The notes under the pieces are model-generated. The model had not been told where the DNA came from. It was given only the letters and a program-made list of their open reading frames with translations, and did no database searches. Below are positions 1,396-40,695 of a stretch of 64,000 bases of DNA, one piece after another. This DNA comes from a virus (taxonomy: Duplodnaviria; Caudoviricetes): IMG/VR virus record IMGVR_UViG_3300020112_000918, positions 32,001 through 96,000 of that record. One strand, given 5' to 3'. How positions within the stretch are numbered: position 1 is the stretch's first letter; every line of letters begins with the position of its first letter. The translations under genes and the position numbers were made by a program.

Positions 1396-2298
1396 ATGAG
1401 CGTGTATCACGGATCACATAGAATAGCTGGATCTAATAAAAACGTTATTCGAGACAGTTTAACTCGTCAGGATACTACTTGGTCTTCTGCCAAAATTGCT
1501 GAAGAAATTCAAAATGCTAAAACATATGCATCCTACGCAGCTATGCTTGGAGAAAACTTTACTAACGGGGTTTTAACAGAACGCAACTTAGTAAATGTTT
1601 TAGGAGCTACTAGTGTTGCGGATGCTTTTGCTAAGCTGCAGGCAAAAACTTCTGTGGGAGATTTTACAAACTTAGGATTGGGAGACTATATTGATATTCC
1701 TTCTATCACTTTTGACGGTCAGACTTTGACTCATAATCCTTCTTATGAAAATCTTCGAGTTCAGATAATTGCGTTTGACTACTTTAAAAACTACTATAAT
1801 ACTACTCATCATGCAGTAATGCAGTTTAAGCATTGTCCTTTTAAAAAGGAAATTAACTCTGCAAACTCTAACGTAGGTGGCTATCCTGCTATGCCTATAG
1901 CAGGTTACTTGAGTACTACTTTTGGAGCAGGACTTGAAGCAGCTATAGGAATTAACTGTTTGTCTATTAAGCAGTTCTTCCAGAAAGCAGCTACTGCTTG
2001 GTCGAACTCTACAGGATACAAAGTATTTTTACCTACAGAAAATCAGCTGATTGGACACAAAGGTTCTTCTACAGTAGCTACAAATTTTGTTTCCTATGAA
2101 CTAGGTCAGTTCCCTTACTACACAATTAATCCTAAGGGTCTTATGAAGAACTCTAATGGAGTACTTCACTACTATTGGACAGCTTCTCCGTTGTTTGCTG
2201 TCTCGTATCGCTTTGCTTACGTGGGCGACAGTGGTCGCGTGTACGACGGCAGTGCTAATGATGACGTTATCGGTGTTGCTCCAGTTTTCTGTATCTAG
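1396..2298 (+). CDS. DGR1 target protein, C-type lectin fold (DUF6273-like), probable receptor-binding/tail tip protein
   Basis: C-terminal YYWTASP...FAYV...GVAPVFCI; 3' end is the variable repeat matching TR at 2826-2921. Confidence 0.9.
   Translation: MSVYHGSHRIAGSNKNVIRDSLTRQDTTWSSAKIAEEIQNAKTYASYAAMLGENFTNGVLTERNLVNVLGATSVADAFAKLQAKTSVGDFTNLGLGDYIDIPSITFDGQTLTHNPSYENLRVQIIAFDYFKNYYNTTHHAVMQFKHCPFKKEINSANSNVGGYPAMPIAGYLSTTFGAGLEAAIGINCLSIKQFFQKAATAWSNSTGYKVFLPTENQLIGHKGSSTVATNFVSYELGQFPYYTINPKGLMKNSNGVLHYYWTASPLFAVSYRFAYVGDSGRVYDGSANDDVIGVAPVFCI
2189..2284 (+). repeat. DGR1 variable repeat (VR1)
   Basis: 96-bp ungapped match to TR1; 18 mismatches, all at TR adenines. Confidence 0.97.
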
Positions 2299-2317
2299 TA
2301 TCCAAAATCTTTAATCT

Positions 2318-2337
2318 GGGCTGCATACCTGCAGCCC
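2318..2337 (+). promoter_or_regulatory. DGR1 target-recognition hairpin/cruciform
   Basis: GGGCTGCA-TACC-TGCAGCCC: 8-bp GC-rich stem, 4-nt loop (GGTA = GRNA on bottom strand), just after VR/IMH. Confidence 0.85.
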
Positions 2338-2362
2338 TTGTAACACAGGTTGAACGAGGAAT

Positions 2363-2815
2363 ATGAGCGTACCAGTAAGAAAAAGAAATTTATCTAGCCT
2401 TGAGTTCTATAATACAGCAGTTACAATCTACAAGGACATTGTGTCTATCTTAGACAAACTGCCGAGAAAATTGGTAGATTCAACCAGTCACGAAGTAGAT
2501 AGAACTTACTTAATAGATTTCTATCAGAAAGCGTTTCTGAAAACTTATGAAGATATGATGCTGAATATTGATTTAGCAAATGAGATTTTCATAAGTGATA
2601 AAACTGCAGCCCAGTTTAGAAATAGAAGATTGAGTTACCAGGATACAGCTATCGCTATGTGTACTCATTTAGAAACTCTGGTAGAATTGCTTACAATGAA
2701 TTTTCCTAAAATCGTAGGAGAATTAGGGGTACTGTCTCAGAATCTGGAATTTGAGTTGTCTTTACTAAAAGGATGGAAAGAATACACTAAAAAGAAAAGA
2801 AAGGTGCTTGACTAA
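2363..2815 (+). CDS. avd: DGR accessory variability determinant (Avd-like four-helix bundle)
   Basis: MSVPVRKR..LEFY start, IDLANEIF..RRLSYQDTAI, C-terminal LLKGW; lies between target and TR. Confidence 0.85.
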   Translation: MSVPVRKRNLSSLEFYNTAVTIYKDIVSILDKLPRKLVDSTSHEVDRTYLIDFYQKAFLKTYEDMMLNIDLANEIFISDKTAAQFRNRRLSYQDTAIAMCTHLETLVELLTMNFPKIVGELGVLSQNLEFELSLLKGWKEYTKKKRKVLD

Positions 2816-2825
2816 AAATTATCGT

Positions 2826-2921
2826 CGTTGTTTGCTGACTCGAATAACTTTGCTAACGTGAACAACAATGGTAACGTGAACAACAACAATGCTAATAATG
2901 ACATTATCGGTGTTGCTCCAG
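2826..2921 (+). repeat. DGR1 template repeat (TR1)
   Basis: AAC/AAT-rich (13 AAY codons) copy of VR1. Confidence 0.97.
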
Positions 2922-3194
2922 ATTTAGATAAATATTTGATATCCCAATCTAGAGATCTTAAGTTGTTACACTTCAACTACAAAAAGTGTTGGGATTTTTA
3001 AATTTATTTAAAGGAGTCAAGAGTCCTGCTAGAAATAGCAAATCTTCGGTTTTGACATAAGAAAGTGGACGCTGCTTGCATGGTAGAAGCGTAAGCAAAC
3101 TTCTATTTCATACTTTCAAAATTATGCAGAGTGTAACTTAATTGCTAAAATCCTTCCTCTAGAAAGGATACTCTGTGCAAAACCTTTTTATTTT

Positions 3195-4286
3195 ATGACT
3201 TCTGAAGATCGACGAGAATTAAGATACCAGCGAAGAAAAGCTAAAAGAATTAAAGACCAACCAGATTTTTCTGAACTTTTAAAACCAGAAAATTTATACA
3301 ATTCCTACAAGCTATGCAGAAAAGGAACTTCTTGGAAAGCAGCTGTGCAACGCTATGGAAAACACTGTATACGAAATATTTTTGCTTCTATTGAAAAGCT
3401 AAAGAAAGGAGAACCAATTACAGAACCTTTCAATCTGTTTGAAGTTCAAGAGCGAGGACGTATCAGAGTAGTTATGAGCGTTCGTATAAAAGAAAGAGTA
3501 GTTCAGAAAGCCTTGCATGACTATATACTATTTCCTATTCTAAAACCTACATTAATTCCTGACTCGGGAGCTTGTATAAAAGGAAAAGGAATTTCTTTTA
3601 CGAGAAAACGACTTAAAGAGCATTTGCGCAGATTTTATAGGAAGACTGGAAATAATGAAGGCTACGTACTTTGTGTAGACTACTCGAATTACTTTGGCTC
3701 TATAAGGCATGATGTCTTGTTAAAGTTTTTATCCAAAAAGATTCGAGATGAACAGGTATTAAAGCTAGTAAAAGAAATTTTAGACAATTATAAAAAAATC
3801 GGCTTAGGACTAGGTAGTCAAATTTCTCAGCTATGTGCTTTATTTTATTTAAGTTCAGTAGATCACTTTGTGAAAGAAAAGTTGCGAGTAAAATATTATG
3901 GTCGTTATATGGATGACTGCTACTTAATAAGTGACTCAAAAGAGGAACTTAAGTATTGGCTTAAGGAAATTAGAAAGTTTAGTGAATCCGTTCTAGGACT
4001 AACTATAAGTTCTAGAAAAACTACTATTCAGAAATTAACAAATTTTAAGTTCATTAAGGGACACTACTGCTTATCTCTTACTGGAAAAATTAAAGTTTTT
4101 CCGGATAGGAAAACATTTTTAAGATTTAAACACAAATTCGTTAAAATGTTGAAAATGAAGTGTTCCGAAGAAATTTTGCTTCCTGTAGTGCAGAGCTGGA
4201 AAGGTCATTTAAAATATTTTAATTCTTGGAAAGAGAAGCAAGCAATGTTTAAGCTCTTAGGAACCTATTTAATTAAATCTAGCTAA
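3195..4286 (+). CDS. DGR reverse transcriptase RT1
   Basis: ERVVQ, DYSNYFGSI, GLGSQISQ (DGR-type GxxxSQ), RYMDD; MTSEDRRE..YQRR N-terminus. Confidence 0.95.
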   Translation: MTSEDRRELRYQRRKAKRIKDQPDFSELLKPENLYNSYKLCRKGTSWKAAVQRYGKHCIRNIFASIEKLKKGEPITEPFNLFEVQERGRIRVVMSVRIKERVVQKALHDYILFPILKPTLIPDSGACIKGKGISFTRKRLKEHLRRFYRKTGNNEGYVLCVDYSNYFGSIRHDVLLKFLSKKIRDEQVLKLVKEILDNYKKIGLGLGSQISQLCALFYLSSVDHFVKEKLRVKYYGRYMDDCYLISDSKEELKYWLKEIRKFSESVLGLTISSRKTTIQKLTNFKFIKGHYCLSLTGKIKVFPDRKTFLRFKHKFVKMLKMKCSEEILLPVVQSWKGHLKYFNSWKEKQAMFKLLGTYLIKSS

Positions 4287-4296
4287 GGAGAATAAG

Positions 4297-4701
4297 ATGG
4301 TTTACATTTGGAATAAAGATGAACAAGTAGTATTTCATACAGATAAAAAGTTTGCAGTAGAAGTAGAAAAACTCCCTGCTACGCCAGACTTAGAAATGTC
4401 TGAAGAAGAATTTTATGCAAAACAGCCTATCCGAATAGTAGACGGAAAGTTTACTTTTGGAAAAACTGAAGAAGAACTTTCTCAGGAGGAAGCTGCAGCT
4501 GTAAGAACTAAAAGAGATTATCTTATAAATGAAGTTCAATGGCGTGTAGACAGATACCTTGAACAAAAAGCTGCAGGAGAGACTACAGTAGATTCAGAAG
4601 CAAAGTTTAAAAAGATTTCTGCTTACATAAGAGCTCTGAGAGACATTCCTACTCAGAAAGGATTTCCTTTTGACGTTGTCTGGCCAACTCTGGAGGTCTA
4701 A
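4297..4701 (+). CDS. phage tail (fibre) assembly chaperone-like protein
   Basis: RTKRDYLI...YIRALRDIPTQKGFPFDVVWP motif; CCTATTT at 4264-4270 upstream. Confidence 0.8.
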   Translation: MVYIWNKDEQVVFHTDKKFAVEVEKLPATPDLEMSEEEFYAKQPIRIVDGKFTFGKTEEELSQEEAAAVRTKRDYLINEVQWRVDRYLEQKAAGETTVDSEAKFKKISAYIRALRDIPTQKGFPFDVVWPTLEV

Positions 4702-4896: not shown

Positions 4897-5246
4897 ATCC
4901 AGAACTTTTAGATACTGTAAGAATCCTGATGACAGCTGTAATGATCGTCTCTACAGAAACTATCGGGATTCTTCAGTGGCTTAAGAACTTCATGTCAGAC
5001 AAAGGCTCAAAAAGAAAGAGAAACGCTTTTATTGCTTTTTGTATCTTAGTTCCTTGTGCTCTGATGAACTCAACTCTTGTGTCAACCTTGGCTACGGCTA
5101 TATTTAATGTTATATTTCTTTCATTAGCAGTTGAACAGCTTGCTTATCAGACCATTGTAAATGGTATTCCAAAAATCATCGATGCGATGTTTGACAAGGC
5201 TGCTTCCTTTGCTTCTAAGAAAGAAGAAAAGGAGAATTTACAATGA
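4893..5246 (+). CDS. membrane protein, possible holin
   Basis: Two to three hydrophobic segments, charged C-terminus. Confidence 0.5.
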   Translation: MNPELLDTVRILMTAVMIVSTETIGILQWLKNFMSDKGSKRKRNAFIAFCILVPCALMNSTLVSTLATAIFNVIFLSLAVEQLAYQTIVNGIPKIIDAMFDKAASFASKKEEKENLQ

Positions 5247-5902
5247 TTATCTTAAATGAAGCATCTGGAATCCAGAAAGCACAGATAGGAGTTTCTTCTG
5301 AACACAAGAAAGACCCTGCAACAAATCGAGGATTTGGCTATCTCTCACTTGAATACAAAGTAAACGGTGTAAAGCAGAAAGCTCGTTTTTCTTTCGATGC
5401 AAAAACAGGAGTTGTCAATTTCACAGGAGAGCCATGGGACTGGATCAAGAGTGAAATAGCTAAACGACCTTACACTTCCGATGAAAAAGACTTTATGACT
5501 CTTCATGCGAAGTCTTATGCTCGGTTCGTTAAGGGAGCAAGATCTTGTTTCTTTAATGGAACTAAGTGGAGTCTTGGCTACGGTAGTCTTGACGAAGCTG
5601 CTTTGAAAAACAAGAGTAAGATAACAGCAGACATAGTAAACCAGTATTCTATGTTGGTATCTGTTAATCCGATTAATTCTACTTTTTCTTACAACCTGAG
5701 AGATCAGGCTCTGTCCCAGGAAATAGCAATTCCGTTTATTGAGAATCCAGCTTATCCTTACATGTTTATTCTGAGACCAGACAAGCAGGAAGAGTTTGAG
5801 CAGCTTTGCAAAAAATACTGCACCCGTTCTTCTTCTGGTTGGTTTACTGTGTCTAGAAGACCTTCTTCTATCGCAGTGGGCAAGAAAGTCTACTTAGTAT
5901 AA
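5243..5902 (+). CDS. hypothetical protein (possible internal head protein)
   Basis: 219-aa ORF, SD AAGGAG, MIILNE|A leader. Confidence 0.6.
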   Translation: MIILNEASGIQKAQIGVSSEHKKDPATNRGFGYLSLEYKVNGVKQKARFSFDAKTGVVNFTGEPWDWIKSEIAKRPYTSDEKDFMTLHAKSYARFVKGARSCFFNGTKWSLGYGSLDEAALKNKSKITADIVNQYSMLVSVNPINSTFSYNLRDQALSQEIAIPFIENPAYPYMFILRPDKQEEFEQLCKKYCTRSSSGWFTVSRRPSSIAVGKKVYLV

Positions 5903-5922: not shown

Positions 5923-5944
5923 AGCTCCCTTCGGGGAGCTTTTT
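5923..5944 (+). terminator. rho-independent terminator
   Basis: AGCTCCC-TTCG-GGGAGCT-TTTT. Confidence 0.85.
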
Positions 5945-5960
5945 ATTTGCCTATTTGTTT

Positions 5961-8900
5961 ATGGCAAATAATTTAACTGATGGCATGCCTGAGGGCTTGA
6001 CCTTTAAATCTGAAGAACACAAACAAGATCTCACTTACAAAGCTACAGAAGAAGCATTGAGACAATTTTTAAAGATTTCTTCTCAGCTCGGAACTCATAA
6101 TAAAGACCTTCAAGAAGAGATTAAAACTCTTGTCGGAGATCAACAGAAACTGTACAAAAGATTCGATGAGGAACAGGCTCAACGCAGATTAGATGCAAAG
6201 CTGCTTCGTGAAAAGGGTGCTTCCGACGAAGAGATTATTGCCTACTTGTCTAAAAGACAGGAAACTTACGAAAAAGACACAAAGGCTTTGTTTGACTCAT
6301 TTGGAGATCTTCACAGAACTCTTGAAGGCTGGATTGAAGAAGATGAAAACCTTTCTGGTGGAGACAGAGTCCTTTTAAGAAAACAGCTTGAGACTTTCCA
6401 AAAGTCTTACGACCTGGATGAGCAGCTCAAGGCTGAAGCCGAAAGAAACGAAAAGAAACGAAACTCAATCCTCGAAAACATAGCAGAAAGTACTAAGGGA
6501 ACTTGGAAAGAAGCTCTTGAAAGTGGTAAATCTGAAAGAAAAGACCTGTTCGGTTCTTTTGCTTCTTCTCTGCTCGGTCCTCTTCGTGTTATTGCAGACC
6601 CTCTGACCAAGGTTGCCACAGGTAAGACAACTAGAGAAATCGCAGGAGACATTTTCGAGAAATGGACTTCAAAAGAGGACAAAGAAGATGAAGATAAGGC
6701 TGCAGAAAGAGACCTTGAACTCGAGACAGCTCTTTCATCGGCTCAACCGCCTTTAATTTCTTCTGTAGACCAGATAGCTAATCTTATCGAGAGTGACTCT
6801 CCTGAAGGACTTCTATCTCCAGAAGATATGAGAACTACGTCAACTGAAGAACTTCCTGTGTCTGCTTCTGTAAACAACGAAGGAATTCTGGAAAGAACAA
6901 CTCCTGTAGAAAACGACCTTTTACGTAAGGGTGGAATTGTCGGAGCAGCTGCTGTCTTCTTAGGAAAAGAAATTCGTAAGCTGGGTGAAGGAATTGAAGA
7001 CATCGACGTAGATGGAGATGATGAGGGATTCCTCGACAAAATTTCTGGAGGTAAGTTCTCAAAGACTCTTGCCAAACTCGCTCCTACTCTTGCTTCAGCT
7101 GCAGGAGTTGCTGCCGTTGCTGCAGTTCCTATTGCTATGCTCGTAGGTGGAGCTAAACTTCAGGAAAGAGATACTGAAGATGCTAAAAAGTATGCTGAAA
7201 AAGGCGAATACGGTCGAGCAGTAGAAACTGCTTGGCTTGGAGATAGAGAAAGACTCACTGAAGAAAATGCCAATGCAGAACTCGGAAGAGCAACTGGTAA
7301 AACAGCTCTGCTTGCAGGAGGAGCTGCAGGTGTTACAGCCTTAGCTGCAGGAGGAGCTGCTGCCGGAATGTCCGCAGGAGCTGCAGCTGCTGCAGGAGGT
7401 GCAGGACTCTTAGGTACGGGGCTTGCTGCTGCGGGAGCAACTGCAGGAGCTGTATTCCCTCCAGTTCTCATAGCTGCTGCGATTGCTGCAGCTGCAACAG
7501 TTGTAGCTAAGGGAGTTCAGGAAGCATATGAACTCGGATGGGATAAAAACCAAGCCGAAATTCAGAAAAACTTATACGATGTAATCTACTCAGAAGACTC
7601 TTCTGTTTGGGAGAAAGTTAAGGCTTCTGTCAGTTCAGACTGGAAAGAGTTTACAGGAACTATTGCTGGAGGAATCCGTGGAGTTACTGAAGAACTTGAG
7701 GGAGACGCAGCTATTGAATGGCAGAGAGGAATTGAGTATCTTGAAAAGACAGCTGCTGAAGGTAACGCAGAAAATGCTCGTCTTCTGACTATGATTCAGA
7801 GCGAAGAGTTTAAGTCTCTTTCTAAGAAAGACCAGGAAATGATGCTTAAATCAGAAGGACTTTTTGATGAGTATGAAACAATGCTCGATGAAGCTCAGAA
7901 CTCTTTCGGTGAAAGTATGCTTAACGGCTTACGAGCTACAGGGGACTTCTTTATCGGAGCTGTAAATACTAAGATGGAAGCCTATAACGGTAGAAAAGGA
8001 GCAGCAATAGATGCAAAACTTCTCAAAGAAATGGACAAAATTACGGGTGAAGATGTTGAACGCCTTAAAAATTCTACAGCGTATGCTGAAGCTCTTTCAC
8101 AGGGTAAAAATAAGAAGCAAGCAATGGAAGCAGCGTATCTCGAAGAAAAGCACAAAGAAAATGCAGCCCTCGGAATCCAAAAAGAAAACGGAGTCGCAGT
8201 AGGCTACAACGACTACGCTGTTACTTACTTCCAGAAAAAGAAATCTGATGAAGACTATCGTCAGACTCACGAATACGCTCAAGAAAAAGCTAAGCTCATG
8301 CAGAAAGGTTACTCTTCAGAGGAAGCAGATTTAAAGGCTATTGAAGAGTACAACGAAATGTATGAACAGGCTCTAACTTGGCGACTTAAACAGACTAAGG
8401 ACTATCGTGACCACTATAAAAAATGTCTCAAAGAAGGAAAGTCTATGGCTCAGGCTGAAAGAGAAGCCCTCCAGGTAGCCCGTGAAAACAAATACAACAC
8501 GATGACCTATACTGAGATCGTTAAAGAAAAGTTCTCAGAAATGGGTAAGGCTATTAAAGAGACATTTACAAAAGTCGGAGATAAGATCAAAGACGTGTTC
8601 GGAGATGTAAAAGAAAAGATTGCTGACGGGTTCAACGCTTTTAAAGAATCTGAATTCGGTCAGGCTATCTCAGACTTTGTTACAGGAATCTGGACAAAGG
8701 TTACTGAATGGTTCGGTAAGATAGGTGACTGGTTCTCAAGTAAGTGGGACTCAGTGGTTGGAGGTCTGACAGATGCTAAGGACTGGGTTGTAGACAAAGC
8801 CACAGCTGCGGGTTCTTGGATAAGTGATACAGCTTCATCTGCTTGGTCAGGAATTACAGACTTCCTCTCAATTGATGACGGTATCGTCACAAAAGACGGA

Positions 8901-9146
8901 AAGGTTATTCAGCTTTCTCCAGATGACAACGTTTATGCTACTAAAAATATGCCAACCGTTGTGGGAGATGCAGACGCACAAAGAGCTATGCCTTCTATTC
9001 CTGCTCCACAGCCTGAGTTTACAGATAAGAACATTATTGCAGCTATTCAGGTTCTTACAGAAGTTCTAAAGGGCAAGAATATGTCTCCTGAGATTAATAT
9101 TCCGGACAATTCGACTGTAGCTTTTGATCAGTTCAGATCTGCTTAA
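5961..9146 (+). CDS. tape measure protein
   Basis: ~1060 aa helical; Ala/Gly-rich hydrophobic segments; W/F-spaced 11-aa repeats near C-terminus; start likely ATG 5961, 4 nt after CCTATTT. Confidence 0.8.
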   Translation: MANNLTDGMPEGLTFKSEEHKQDLTYKATEEALRQFLKISSQLGTHNKDLQEEIKTLVGDQQKLYKRFDEEQAQRRLDAKLLREKGASDEEIIAYLSKRQETYEKDTKALFDSFGDLHRTLEGWIEEDENLSGGDRVLLRKQLETFQKSYDLDEQLKAEAERNEKKRNSILENIAESTKGTWKEALESGKSERKDLFGSFASSLLGPLRVIADPLTKVATGKTTREIAGDIFEKWTSKEDKEDEDKAAERDLELETALSSAQPPLISSVDQIANLIESDSPEGLLSPEDMRTTSTEELPVSASVNNEGILERTTPVENDLLRKGGIVGAAAVFLGKEIRKLGEGIEDIDVDGDDEGFLDKISGGKFSKTLAKLAPTLASAAGVAAVAAVPIAMLVGGAKLQERDTEDAKKYAEKGEYGRAVETAWLGDRERLTEENANAELGRATGKTALLAGGAAGVTALAAGGAAAGMSAGAAAAAGGAGLLGTGLAAAGATAGAVFPPVLIAAAIAAAATVVAKGVQEAYELGWDKNQAEIQKNLYDVIYSEDSSVWEKVKASVSSDWKEFTGTIAGGIRGVTEELEGDAAIEWQRGIEYLEKTAAEGNAENARLLTMIQSEEFKSLSKKDQEMMLKSEGLFDEYETMLDEAQNSFGESMLNGLRATGDFFIGAVNTKMEAYNGRKGAAIDAKLLKEMDKITGEDVERLKNSTAYAEALSQGKNKKQAMEAAYLEEKHKENAALGIQKENGVAVGYNDYAVTYFQKKKSDEDYRQTHEYAQEKAKLMQKGYSSEEADLKAIEEYNEMYEQALTWRLKQTKDYRDHYKKCLKEGKSMAQAEREALQVARENKYNTMTYTEIVKEKFSEMGKAIKETFTKVGDKIKDVFGDVKEKIADGFNAFKESEFGQAISDFVTGIWTKVTEWFGKIGDWFSSKWDSVVGGLTDAKDWVVDKATAAGSWISDTASSAWSGITDFLSIDDGIVTKDGKVIQLSPDDNVYATKNMPTVVGDADAQRAMPSIPAPQPEFTDKNIIAAIQVLTEVLKGKNMSPEINIPDNSTVAFDQFRSA

Positions 9147-9170: not shown

Positions 9171-9180
9171 GGAATTATAC
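9171..9180 (+). promoter_or_regulatory. GGAATTATA-type promoter for the downstream ncRNA
   Basis: Matches the GGAATTATAA(T) motif found upstream of several non-structural genes. Confidence 0.5.
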
Positions 9181-9185
9181 TGAAT

Positions 9186-9649
9186 GAGCATTAAAAACAA
9201 GCCTTGATTTTACGCAGAAGAGATCTGACACTTGGGTCAAGGCTGCTTAACCTCTTCAACAAGGGGTAACTTCTACAAAGAAAAACACTTACTAGTATTT
9301 CTGGCTCGGGACGACAAAGCGTGATGCTACTCCGTAGGGGAATACGCTAAGGCGAGACTGTGGTCTAGCGTTGTAATCGTGGGAAGCAGTTTATGACCCT
9401 GACGTGTAGGTGGAGGAGTGGTGAGGGGAATGAGTACGCCACGTAGAAGCGATCTGAACTTATCGATAAAGGTACCACGGGAAAAACGGTTCAGCGATTT
9501 TTCCTGCTCTGATGATGGCTCCGTAGCTTGAATCATGGGCAACCCTGTCTTTAGGAGACCACCTAACGCCAGAAGCAGTTAGGGACTTTAAGCCACTCGG
9601 CTAAGTAGCGTTTCCTAAGGTCGGGTCTGCTCTTCCGAATCCACCACTC
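9186..9649 (+). ncRNA. putative large structured non-coding RNA
   Basis: No credible ORF, raised GC, many helices (AGCCTTGA/TCAAGGCT, GGAAAAA/TTTTTCC, CCTAAC/GTTAGG, GAGTGGTG/CACCACTC), loop-loop complementarity. Confidence 0.6.
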
Positions 9650-9701
9650 TTGAGATTTCTTTCTTATCTAATTGAGTTCCTATTTTTGAGTGGAGGATTA
9701 A

Positions 9702-10355
9702 ATGTGGAAAAATCTAAGATTACTTTACCTACTTGGCTCTTTATTCTTGTTCTCGTTCTTGCCCTTGCAGGAATTGCATTCTCAGTCTACTCCGAGTATA
9801 ACTTTTACAAATTTAAACATGATGCAGCCACTCGGTATTCCGAACTTGAACAGCAGTATAAATTGGAATCTGCCTCTCTCGCAGCAGAACTGGACTCAAT
9901 TCGACTTCACGCTGATGAGCTTGAACGACTTATCCAGGGCGTTCAATCTGGAGTATCAGAACTCTCAGAACTTAATAGACAATCTACAGAGTCAGCTAAA
10001 CTTCTCGAATCTTCAAATTCTGTCATTGGAGTTATCTTTGGAGAGTACGCAAGACGAACTGCAAAGGTTACAGCAGAGCTTGAACAACTCACTCGAAACT
10101 CAACAAAATATGGACTCCCTAGCCGAACAGATGACAACGGAAACTAATGTTCTGAAAGAAGAAAATAAACTTTATAAGCGTAAGATTAAGAAACTCTGGA
10201 TATCTATTGGAGTTTCTTCTGGAGGAGCAGCTATAGGAAGCCCTCTAATTGTTGAAGGAATTCGAACAGACAATCAAGTGATGACTTGGTCTGGAATAGG
10301 AGTTCTTGGAATAACAGCTATTTTTGATATAGTTTACAACATCTTCATAGAATAA
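9702..10355 (+). CDS. signal-peptide/coiled-coil protein with C-terminal hydrophobic hairpin (spanin partner-like)
   Basis: ATG after same GGAGG; signal-like N-terminus, coiled coil, two Gly-rich hydrophobic C-terminal segments. Confidence 0.6.
   Translation: MWKNLRLLYLLGSLFLFSFLPLQELHSQSTPSITFTNLNMMQPLGIPNLNSSINWNLPLSQQNWTQFDFTLMSLNDLSRAFNLEYQNSQNLIDNLQSQLNFSNLQILSLELSLESTQDELQRLQQSLNNSLETQQNMDSLAEQMTTETNVLKEENKLYKRKIKKLWISIGVSSGGAAIGSPLIVEGIRTDNQVMTWSGIGVLGITAIFDIVYNIFIE
9704..10147 (+). CDS. N-terminal TM + coiled-coil protein (i-spanin-like)
   Basis: GTG start after GGAGG; hydrophobic helix then heptad pattern; upstream of endolysin; nested in another frame of 9702-10355. Confidence 0.55.
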   Translation: MEKSKITLPTWLFILVLVLALAGIAFSVYSEYNFYKFKHDAATRYSELEQQYKLESASLAAELDSIRLHADELERLIQGVQSGVSELSELNRQSTESAKLLESSNSVIGVIFGEYARRTAKVTAELEQLTRNSTKYGLPSRTDDNGN

Positions 10356-10366
10356 GGAGAAAAGAA

Positions 10367-10774
10367 ATGGACACAAAACAGTTTGTAGACAAGTATCTTG
10401 GAACTAAGGTTGACGCAGACGGATTTTATGGAGCACAGTGCGTAGACCTTTTCCGTCAGTTCAATAGAGAAGTTTTCGGCTTTCCTCACACAGGAGGAGT
10501 AGACGGAGCTAAAGATTTGTATGAACTTTACGGTAAACTTCCAGAAGAAAAGAAATACTACGAGCAGATTCGTAAAGAAGGAACTATTCCTCTCGAAGGA
10601 GATATCGTAGTCTTCGGAAAAACTACTAAAAACCAATTCGGTCACGTAGCTATTGTTTTATGGGCTTCCAGAAAGACTATGGTTGTTCTTGAACAGGATG
10701 GTCTGAAACAGGATGGAGCAAAAATCGTAGCTCGTGACTATGACAATGTTCTGGGATTCTTACGTAGGAGATAA
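10367..10774 (+). CDS. CHAP-domain endolysin/amidase
   Basis: DADGFYGAQCVDL (catalytic Cys), GHVAIV (His), LEQD. Confidence 0.9.
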   Translation: MDTKQFVDKYLGTKVDADGFYGAQCVDLFRQFNREVFGFPHTGGVDGAKDLYELYGKLPEEKKYYEQIRKEGTIPLEGDIVVFGKTTKNQFGHVAIVLWASRKTMVVLEQDGLKQDGAKIVARDYDNVLGFLRRR

Positions 10775-39276: not shown

Positions 39277-39292
39277 AAGATCTCCTTAAAAT

Positions 39293-39370
39293 AAGAACGG
39301 GGAGGATTCGAACCTCCACAATTCAGAACAGGCTACAAGTTCTAGTGTCTACCTTTTGCACCACCGTTCC
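39293..39370 (-). tRNA. aberrant tRNA (Leu-like D arm, 9-nt anticodon loop TTGTAGCCT)
   Basis: Acceptor GGAACGG/CCGTTCT, T arm GGAGG-TTCGAAT-CCTCC, anticodon stem AGAAC/GTTCT; identity uncertain. Confidence 0.6.
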
Positions 39371-39382
39371 TGCAGTTAGTAT

Positions 39383-40204: not shown

Positions 40205-40322
40205 AAGAAAAATGCTCAAGCAAGTGGGAGAAGAGCTTGAACGTATAAGGGATGCTCCGGAGAGCACCTCCACTACTCTGTTTGTTCTTTTCCAGAAGCT
40301 GCAAACAGAGAAAAAAGCCTAG

Positions 40323-40695
40323 TGGAGCATAGGGGAATTGAACCCCTGTCCGAGAAATAGCAACGTAACTACTTTTATACGGTCGTAAGCAACCTGTTTT
40401 AGCAGATGGCATTGTTGCGTTGCCACGATGAATAACCCTGTAATTTCTCATCAGAGTGCAGGATCTGCTTAACTCACTTACTGATGATAGACCTCTCATG
40501 TTTCGCAGGATTCCCCTTAGGAAGTCTTGAAAAGGGATCTGCACCTGAGCTCACGCAGTCTCAGGGAAAGCACTGCTTACGCAGCAGCTTTCATTGAGTA
40601 ATCGTTGTCGGTTACTTTAACTTGAACTGTTAAGGACGTTCTAGCCCTGACCGATAGCTAAATTCCTGATAACCCGTCGAAACCAAGAATGCCCC
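40323..40695 (-). ncRNA. ssrA: tmRNA
   Basis: 5' GGGGCATTCTTGGTTTCGAC, 3' GGACAGGGGTTCAATTCCCCTATGCTCCA, G3.U70 pair, tag (A)DNDYSMKAAA* at 40577-40609. Confidence 0.95.

Follow-up and report, generated by a model that had tools for sequence, protein, structure and literature searches.

A large structured RNA behind the tape-measure gene of an uncultured phage, and a divergent paralogue in the same genome

The window analyzed here comprises 64,000 nucleotides (nt), bases 32,001-96,000 of a 133.8-kb IMG/VR phage record (IMGVR_UViG_3300020112_000918, Caudoviricetes; G000 below) whose completeness is estimated at 79%. Judged by comparison with related sequences, window positions 9186-9655 on the plus strand are a genuine structured non-coding RNA, which we call RNA1. 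A divergent paralogue, RNA2, lies 78 kb away in the same genome, and together the two constitute, by sequence and structure, a new family of large structured phage RNAs without a match in Rfam. The comparative set consists of four sequences, namely RNA2 and three copies of RNA1: the window copy, one in IMGVR_UViG_3300028832_000151 (L002), whose RNA1 body is 86% identical to that in the window, and one in IMGVR_UViG_3300031853_000180 (L004), with 65-68% identity. The L004 copy is strongly diverged and therefore carries much information per sequence. In both fragments, RNA1 is likewise placed between the tape-measure gene and a gene starting with ATGTG.

RNAalifold predicted a consensus of 148 pairs for the three RNA1 sequences, 37 of them with a compensatory change. 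The structure used for counting consists of these pairs plus a loop-loop pair proposed in the first-pass annotation of the window, 154 pairs in total. In this consensus fold, 95.4% of the cells are standard pairs, and 39 of the 154 pairs are compensatory, with both sides changed. When the 3' partners were slid by 1-3 columns, only 34-46% of the cells were paired and 4-11 pairs were compensatory; none of 500 column shuffles equalled the observed fold values. Invariant loop blocks of 20-40 nt adjoin helices that diverge freely. Read on the plus strand, the fold contains 53 G.U cells and 15 non-pairs, and reading the same helices on the minus strand raises the number of non-pairs to 66, which argues for selection on a plus-strand RNA rather than on DNA hairpins.

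A three-sequence RNA1 profile, run against the whole genome with nhmmer, returned two weak, colinear minus-strand hits at about 119.5-120.0 kb (E=3.6e-4 and 6.9e-4), corresponding to the paralogue:

G000 119,481-120,024 (= L051:3982-4525), minus strand: RNA2, about 545 nt, outside the window.

Two covariance models were aligned globally to RNA2. Model R1, representing the central domain of RNA1, gave 26 bits (E=7.8e-6), and model R2, representing the 3' half and tail, gave 45.4 bits (E=9.8e-12). With RNA2 added, 97.3% of the cells in the R1 alignment are paired and 20 of 52 pairs are compensatory (1-5 in slid controls); the corresponding values for R2 are 93.8% and 28 of 57 (4-10 in slid controls). 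Folded alone, RNA2 reaches z=-5.2. The genome holds exactly two copies of the family, and the two related fragments have one RNA1 apiece. While the sequences of most helices differ between the two RNAs, RNA2 has the tail of RNA1 almost letter for letter and retains its ACGACAA-hairpin module, UGGCUCC loop, second kissing hairpin and 3' domain (see below). It also keeps the AGGNGAAUGA hairpin, the stem of which has changed from GUGGUG/CGCCAC to ACAGGUG/CGCCUGU, and carries the loop motifs of the 5' hairpin on a different stem, CUCG/CGAG.

The RNA1 fold is organized as follows:

9186-9632, plus strand: RNA1 body, about 447 nt with about 20 helices.
9186-9190/9628-9632, plus strand: tentative closing stem GAGCA/UGCUC, without covariation and weak in L004.
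9200-9267, plus strand: 5' domain, with hairpin 9200-9244 followed by hairpin 9250-9267.
9200-9244, plus strand: long hairpin AGCCTTGA/TCAAGGCT, 6 of its 11 outer pairs compensatory in L004.
9250-9267, plus strand: conserved hairpin ACCTCTT/AAGGGGT with loop C(A/U)AC, showing G.U-type changes only.
9270-9449, plus strand: central domain, closed by the long-range helix 9270-9276/9443-9449.
9286-9292/9406-9412, plus strand: helix within the central domain.
9295-9302/9338-9345, plus strand: helix within the central domain.
9307-9334, plus strand: almost invariant 28-nt module, stem-ACGACAA-[GCG UGA YGC]-UAC-stem.
9318-9328, plus strand: small hairpin of the central domain.
9350-9400, plus strand: long arm of the central domain.
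9418-9442, plus strand: hairpin GTGGTG/CGCCAC with conserved loop AGGNGAAUGA, covarying in L002 and RNA2.
9450-9465, plus strand: first kissing hairpin, CGAT/ATCG, supported by covariation.
9466-9478, plus strand: linker AUAAAGGUACCAC between the kissing hairpins.
9479-9505, plus strand: second kissing hairpin, GGAAAAA/TTTTTCC, with 3 compensatory pairs.
9506-9625, plus strand: 3' domain, with helix 9506-9540 followed by a long irregular helix.
9506-9540, plus strand: helix with the conserved loop UGGCUCC.
9544-9559/9610-9625, plus strand: long irregular helix, 6 compensatory pairs among the RNA1 sequences.
9562-9583, plus strand: hairpin CCTAAC/GTTAGG with loop CAGAA, supported by covariation and enclosed by the long irregular helix.
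9585-9606, plus strand: variable tip inside the long irregular helix.
9633-9655, plus strand: pyrimidine-rich conserved 3' tail UUCCGAAUCCACCACUCUUGAGAU.

Among the best supported elements is the helix closing the central domain, in which 4 of the 7 pairs are compensatory and one position shows three pair types. The long 5' hairpin conserves its internal-loop motifs ACGCAGAA, CUGACAC and GGG. Since the outermost stem shows no covariation and is weak in L004, we infer the exact 5' end of RNA1; conservation starts about 7-20 nt past the upstream promoter box. Five helices named in the first-pass annotation recur in the consensus, four of them (AGCCTTGA/TCAAGGCT with its 6 compensatory pairs, CGAT/ATCG, GGAAAAA/TTTTTCC and CCTAAC/GTTAGG) with covariation and the fifth (ACCTCTT/AAGGGGT) conserved with G.U-type changes. 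Three others did not survive the comparison. AGCGT/ACGCT is displaced by the better-supported helix 9295-9302/9338-9345 and the small hairpin 9318-9328, and AGCC/GGCT falls in the variable tip, which L002 has lost. The long-range helix GAGTGGTG/CACCACTC, proposed as a closing element, occurs in the window copy, and pairing of this type is found in the minimum-free-energy fold of RNA2, but it is absent from L002 and L004; in L002 its 5' element has become GAGCUGUG, and the compensation is local (CGCCAC to CGCAGC), not in the tail. We therefore rejected it both as a conserved feature and as an alternative pairing.

The loop-loop contact suggested in the first-pass annotation was borne out in RNA1. 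The loops CUGAAC (9454-9459) and GUUCAG (9489-9494) can form a 6-bp kissing pair, all six pairs of which are kept in the three RNA1 sequences; in L004 the loops read CUGAGC/GCUCAG, with one compensatory change from A-U to G-C and the other five pairs invariant. In RNA2, as read from the sequence, the complementarity is shifted and amounts to 4-5 bp only, and the kissing contact is firm in RNA1 only. The 3' tail, on the other hand, is nearly identical in RNA2 (CUUCCGAUUCCACCACCCUUAGAGAU) and L002 and partly retained in L004. That it is shared with RNA2 argues that the tail is part of the RNA rather than a gene-specific complement of a Shine-Dalgarno (SD) sequence.

A family-level DNA pattern matched one further, unrelated phage, represented by L053 (IMGVR_UViG_3300031867_009111, positions 5090-5690, plus strand) and, identically, by L052 (IMGVR_UViG_3300032038_000360). 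The tract in question, about 600-900 nt and poor in open reading frames (ORFs), is divergent from terminase and portal genes and folds strongly (z=-4.33). It contains a 28-nt module, CCAG-ACGACAA-[CGCG UGA UGCG]-ACU-UGG, with compensatory stem changes relative to that of RNA1, and model R1 gives a local hit of 20.9 bits. As the match is confined to this module, we treated it as shared and did not accept L053/L052 as a third family member; the module may recur as an RNA building block, or else point to a very distant relative.

Other searches returned the same small set. No homologue was found by blastn of GenBank phages, and DNA-pattern scans of IMG/VR, JGI metagenomes and GTDB genomes gave only L002 and L004, plus chance matches in GC-rich genomes. 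Searches for the locus anchored on proteins yielded the same two contigs and one distant phage without the RNA. In Logan, ENA and JGI data, however, a neighbouring 147-amino-acid protein is represented by 21 clusters, and further copies of RNA1 should therefore exist.

RNA1 lies in a tract of 557 nt without an ORF, between the tape-measure stop codon (9146) and the ATGTG start (9702/9704), with a GC content of 47-52% against about 40% in its surroundings, in keeping with the earlier description of an ORF-free, GC-richer tract. The neighbouring features are:

5955-9146: tape-measure ORF of 1063 amino acids, with tape-measure PHROG hits, upstream of RNA1.
9656-9706, plus strand: less conserved leader, with the SD sequence GGAGGA at 9692-9697 followed by the ATG (9702) and GTG (9704) starts.
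From 9702/9704: small membrane or coiled-coil gene(s) with these overlapping starts, downstream of RNA1.
10367-10774: endolysin-type amidase, downstream of RNA1, with baseplate wedge genes further on.

A protein-coding or recoded ORF was ruled out. All six frames of the tract contain stops, and the longest "open" reading, frame +1 with TGA read as tryptophan, would require reading through 8 stops, whereas the genes on either side follow the standard code. Indels of 1 or 2 nt separate the three RNA1 homologues at several places; between the window and L004, substitutions fall 47/40/48 by codon phase, without a period of three. Identity in the leader 9656-9706 is 51-72% between loci. Behind it, the ORFs 9702-10355 and 9704-10147 are long and overlapping, start 2 nt apart (ATGTG) with one SD sequence for both, and are likewise both open in L002 and L004.

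The promoter-like box that had been noted upstream turned out to be a phage-wide motif:

9171-9179 (feature entry 9171-9181), plus strand: promoter box GGAATTATA, overlapping a -10-like TATACT.

The 133.8-kb genome contains 24 exact copies of GGAATTATA, nearly all of them intergenic and oriented towards the next gene. The distance to a start codon is in most cases about 80 nt or less, and several copies directly follow a terminator consisting of a hairpin and a T-run. With at most one mismatch, the window has 40 matches against 15.6 expected, a number reached in 0 of 100 shuffles. The motif extends to GGAATTATA(A/T)(A/T), with copies in the window including those at 9171, 21390, 23529, 26459, 34955, 35251, 40894, 62259 and 63244. 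At all three RNA1 loci the box is unchanged, whereas the spacer of 24-27 nt that separates it from the tape-measure stop is only 22-41% identical. Transcription of RNA1 would start at or just after this box (9171-9179), as the 5' part of an operon transcript.

No terminator follows RNA1 in the window or in L004, and a simple scan for a hairpin with a T-run found no plus-strand terminator-like site from 9146 until about 15627. RNA1 is therefore probably co-transcribed with the membrane-protein, endolysin and baseplate genes, and most likely makes up the first ~470 nt of a transcript on which the lysis and baseplate genes follow; it may also be reached by read-through from the tape-measure gene. 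We infer the transcript ends and any processing. Farther upstream, a strong terminator-like hairpin, AGCTCCC-TTCG-GGGAGCT with a T-run, occupies 5923-5940 on the plus strand, leaving only some 15 nt to the TTG annotated as the start of the tape-measure ORF (5955), with no promoter box in between.

RNA2 has a different setting, a 1.4-kb ORF-free strand-switch region between divergent transcription units. A DNA helicase gene lies divergently beside it, and some 440 nt separate RNA2 from the next ORF. Going upstream, the first GGAATTATA box is reached after about 340 nt, a closer promoter candidate (TTGATA-17-TATAGA) was spotted by eye, and no terminator follows RNA2. Directly 3' of it, at L051:3898-3983 (G000 ~119,397-119,482), AGAGATA-type repeats are arranged in tandem at periods of 8, 13 and 27 nt. 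They belong to the stretch that separates RNA2 from the next ORF, which is purine-rich in the RNA sense, and could be origin iterons or a protein-binding array.

Several points weigh against reading these sequences as a family of stand-alone structured RNAs. The single-sequence fold of RNA1 is unexceptional (z=-1.72; 4 of 100 shuffles fold as well), and the case for RNA1 is one of sequence comparison, not of folding energy. Its primary sequence is not unusually conserved, with 65-68% identity to L004 compared to 77-89% for the flanking genes. The collection of homologues recommended in the first-pass annotation provided two RNA1 loci with covariation, but four sequences give no power for R-scape-type statistics, and the consensus structure was taken from the same sequences that were used for the pair counts. 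Support for the kissing loop consists of one compensatory change, and the contact is not clearly kept in RNA2. Finally, neither paralogue has a terminator, though clear terminators are used elsewhere in this phage; this is the look of a cis-acting leader and would be unusual in a stand-alone RNA gene.

The ordinary folding energy and the small number of sequences are also what would be expected of a decayed gene or neutral spacer with chance helices. The 39 compensatory pairs against 4-11 in slid controls, the invariant 20-40-nt loop blocks beside diverging helices, the conserved promoter box and the paralogue of the same architecture, recognized via independent models, all contradict the absence of a functional RNA, which we consider very unlikely already and the least probable of the explanations weighed here.

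To place RNA1 among known RNAs, cmscan was run against all 4227 families of Rfam 15, at gathering thresholds on the window and at E<=10 on RNA1, its L004 homologue and RNA2. At gathering thresholds the whole window contains only a tmRNA and an RT-2 RNA, both elsewhere, and at E<=10 the three RNAs yielded nothing beyond chance matches below threshold, all to small, unrelated families. RNA1 is not GOLLD, ROOL, OLE, HEARO, raiA, RNase P or tmRNA, nor is it an intron of group I or II or a known small ribozyme. The first-pass annotation had seen no hallmark of RNase P, introns or tmRNA and had named a strong Rfam hit as what would remove the novelty; no such hit was obtained. Its proposal of a large phage RNA akin to GOLLD, ROOL or OLE, or else of a novel class, is supported as regards a new family of the same general kind, but not as regards membership of GOLLD, ROOL or OLE. 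The viral structured-RNA catalogue of Fremin et al. (2023) is described as holding candidates of <=151 nt, and it is by this size description alone that it was set against RNA1.

The closest likeness is to ROOL (RF03087) and GOLLD (RF01998), which are also phage-encoded, several hundred nt long and rich in helices, with invariant loops and junctions, covariation-backed kissing contacts, a GC content above that of the host genome and likewise no assigned function. The differences are equally clear. RNA1 and RNA2 are about 450-550 nt long, compared to about 580 nt for ROOL and more than 800 nt for GOLLD, and match neither model in sequence or structure at E<=10. ROOL and GOLLD occur with tRNA islands, whereas RNA1 is 30 kb from the sole tRNA and the tmRNA, amid genes of the tape-measure/endolysin module; it sits directly behind a promoter, without a terminator, in a tail/lysis module, and the genome has two divergent paralogues. 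ROOL and GOLLD assemble into homo-oligomeric cages through A-minor contacts and kissing loops between molecules; those loops, at first taken for tertiary contacts, proved to bridge the subunits (Kretsch et al. 2025, PMC12286853). In RNA1, the covarying 6-bp loop pair is compatible with a contact in cis or in trans, which sequence does not distinguish.

Another parallel is the phi29 packaging RNA (pRNA). In pRNA, two mutually complementary, covarying loops pair between molecules to form a ring, and the complementary loop pair of RNA1 may likewise be intra- or intermolecular. The pRNA is, however, only ~120-174 nt long, comes from a gene close to the packaging genes at the end of the genome and folds differently, and RNA1 has no Rfam match. 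OLE (RF01071) is an operon-embedded large structured RNA that is co-transcribed with flanking protein genes and has no terminator of its own. RNA1 resembles it in its co-transcription within an operon and its kissing-loop contact but does not match its model; moreover, OLE is found on chromosomes of extremophilic Firmicutes and works with the OapA/B/C proteins, the genes for which are not present here.

As for function, we favour, at about even confidence, an autonomous structural, partner-binding or self-assembling RNA over a cis-acting leader. The conserved core occurs in two unrelated gene contexts and the invariance resides in loops and junctions rather than in helices, which argues for action through three-dimensional structure. 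The RNA folds into a 5' hairpin domain, a central domain with the 28-nt module, a kissing hairpin pair and a 3' domain, ending in a pyrimidine-rich tail, and would act via this structure as a stable RNA that binds a protein or ligand or assembles with itself, like the equally elaborate "ornate" phage RNAs. It would probably be released from, or independent of, the downstream mRNA and would be no switch for one particular gene.

A possible, less likely alternative is that RNA1 is a leader module that stays on the mRNA and regulates in cis the operon that follows, by making RNA polymerase resistant to termination in the manner of nut or put sites, by stabilizing the transcript or by gating translation of the ATGTG gene via the tail. 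Both paralogues are on the strand of the downstream genes, the promoter box is directly upstream of RNA1, and no terminator follows either RNA, though hairpin and T-run terminators precede many promoters of this phage. A precedent is offered by nutL/nutR of lambda and putL/putR of HK022, which are two paralogous cis elements per phage genome, promoter-proximal at the heads of long operons and acting as folded RNA. The known nut, put and EAR elements are, however, far smaller than 450-550 nt with ~20 helices, nut and put measuring 30-70 nt with 1-2 hairpins. Furthermore, in the simple scan described above there is no plus-strand terminator-like site for about 6 kb past RNA1, which would leave antitermination nothing nearby to act on, and no N/Q-like or Nun-like partner was identified.

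For translational gating, the window tail AAUCCACCACUC is, as read from the sequence, complementary to GAGUGGAGGAUU at the SD sequence in 11 of 12 positions, and the SD sequence is predicted to be mostly paired at all three RNA1 loci. This pairing is not beyond the genome average: the unpaired probability of 0.20 compares with a mean of 0.23 over 14 genes, 43% of which are as occluded or more. The partner of the SD sequence differs in each locus, and RNA2 has the same tail yet no SD sequence or start codon for about 440 nt. The unexceptional occlusion weakens the case for a gene-specific translational switch, and an SD-sequestration switch was set aside on this ground and on that of the conservation of the tail in the SD-less RNA2. 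A riboswitch or T-box-type regulator would have an aptamer and then an expression platform, consisting of a terminator and antiterminator or of an SD-sequestering helix that alternates with aptamer pairing; no terminator follows either paralogue.

The location of RNA2 raises the question of a DNA- or replication-linked element, such as a pre-primer resembling ColE1 RNA II, activation of an origin by an R-loop, or ori/pac DNA hairpins. Its 1.4-kb ORF-free strand-switch region by the helicase gene, and the purine-rich tract with iteron-like tandem AGAGAUA-type repeats directly after it, would fit such a role. RNA1, however, is in a tail/lysis module with no link to replication and is followed by neither repeats nor an AT-rich unwinding element, and the 53 G.U cells point to selection on a plus-strand RNA and not on hairpins of duplex or single-stranded DNA. 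We regard this explanation as improbable.

A ribozyme or degenerate mobile intron-like element, whether of group I or group II type or a new ribozyme for self-cleavage or processing, is decidedly improbable as well. The size, the multi-domain fold, the long-range helix, the loop-loop contact and the presence of two divergent copies do resemble mobile ribozymes, which typically occur as several divergent copies in a genome. On the other hand, no group I, group II, RNase P or small-ribozyme model matches at E<=10, and the group I intron core (RF00028) in particular gave no hit at this level in RNA1, L004 or RNA2. Both copies are intergenic, and no homing endonuclease or reverse transcriptase gene adjoins either. 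At all three loci, the tape-measure ORF has a conserved TAA stop and C-terminus and the next gene has its own SD sequence and start, so there are no exons to splice.

A more far-reaching proposal, for which we see a small but real chance, is that RNA1 and RNA2 are the founders of a new self-assembling or catalytic class of phage RNA. In one version, the loop pair and the shared 3' tail would link RNA1 and RNA2 into homo- or hetero-oligomers, giving a two-subunit, ROOL/GOLLD-like RNA scaffold or cage. In the other, an undescribed ribozyme or ligand-binding fold would be built around the 28-nt ACGACAA-hairpin module, which also occurs in L053.

Elsewhere in the window, a complete diversity-generating retroelement spans 1396-4701. 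Its variable repeat (2189-2288) is at the end of ORF 1396-2298, and its template repeat (2826-2925) is 81% identical to it, with mismatches falling at template adenines. The other parts are an accessory ORF (2363-2815), the Rfam RT-2 RNA (3000-3205, 74 bits) and a reverse transcriptase (3195-4286), with a tail assembly chaperone (4297-4701) listed at the end of the element. A link between this retroelement and RNA1 was considered and rejected, as the template and variable repeats do not involve the RNA1 tract. The only tRNA that ARAGORN detected in the window is a tRNA-Leu at 39292-39371. The tmRNA (40320-40695, minus strand, 88.5 bits; 40322-40695 according to ARAGORN) is full-length and encodes the tag peptide DNDYSMKAAA.

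Large ornate RNAs without an assigned function are rare, and OLE, GOLLD, ROOL, raiA and HEARO each gave unexpected architecture or biology. The family described here comes from an uncultured large phage, in which RNA1 sits in the late tail/lysis module, and has the unusual property of two divergent paralogues in one genome, which allows the conserved core to be defined by internal comparison. At about 450 nt, RNA1 is a compact target for cryo-EM and chemical probing, its loop-loop contact is testable, and its short module recurs in another phage. Were RNA1 instead to prove a leader that controls late or lysis genes, it would exceed all other phage elements of this kind in size by a wide margin.

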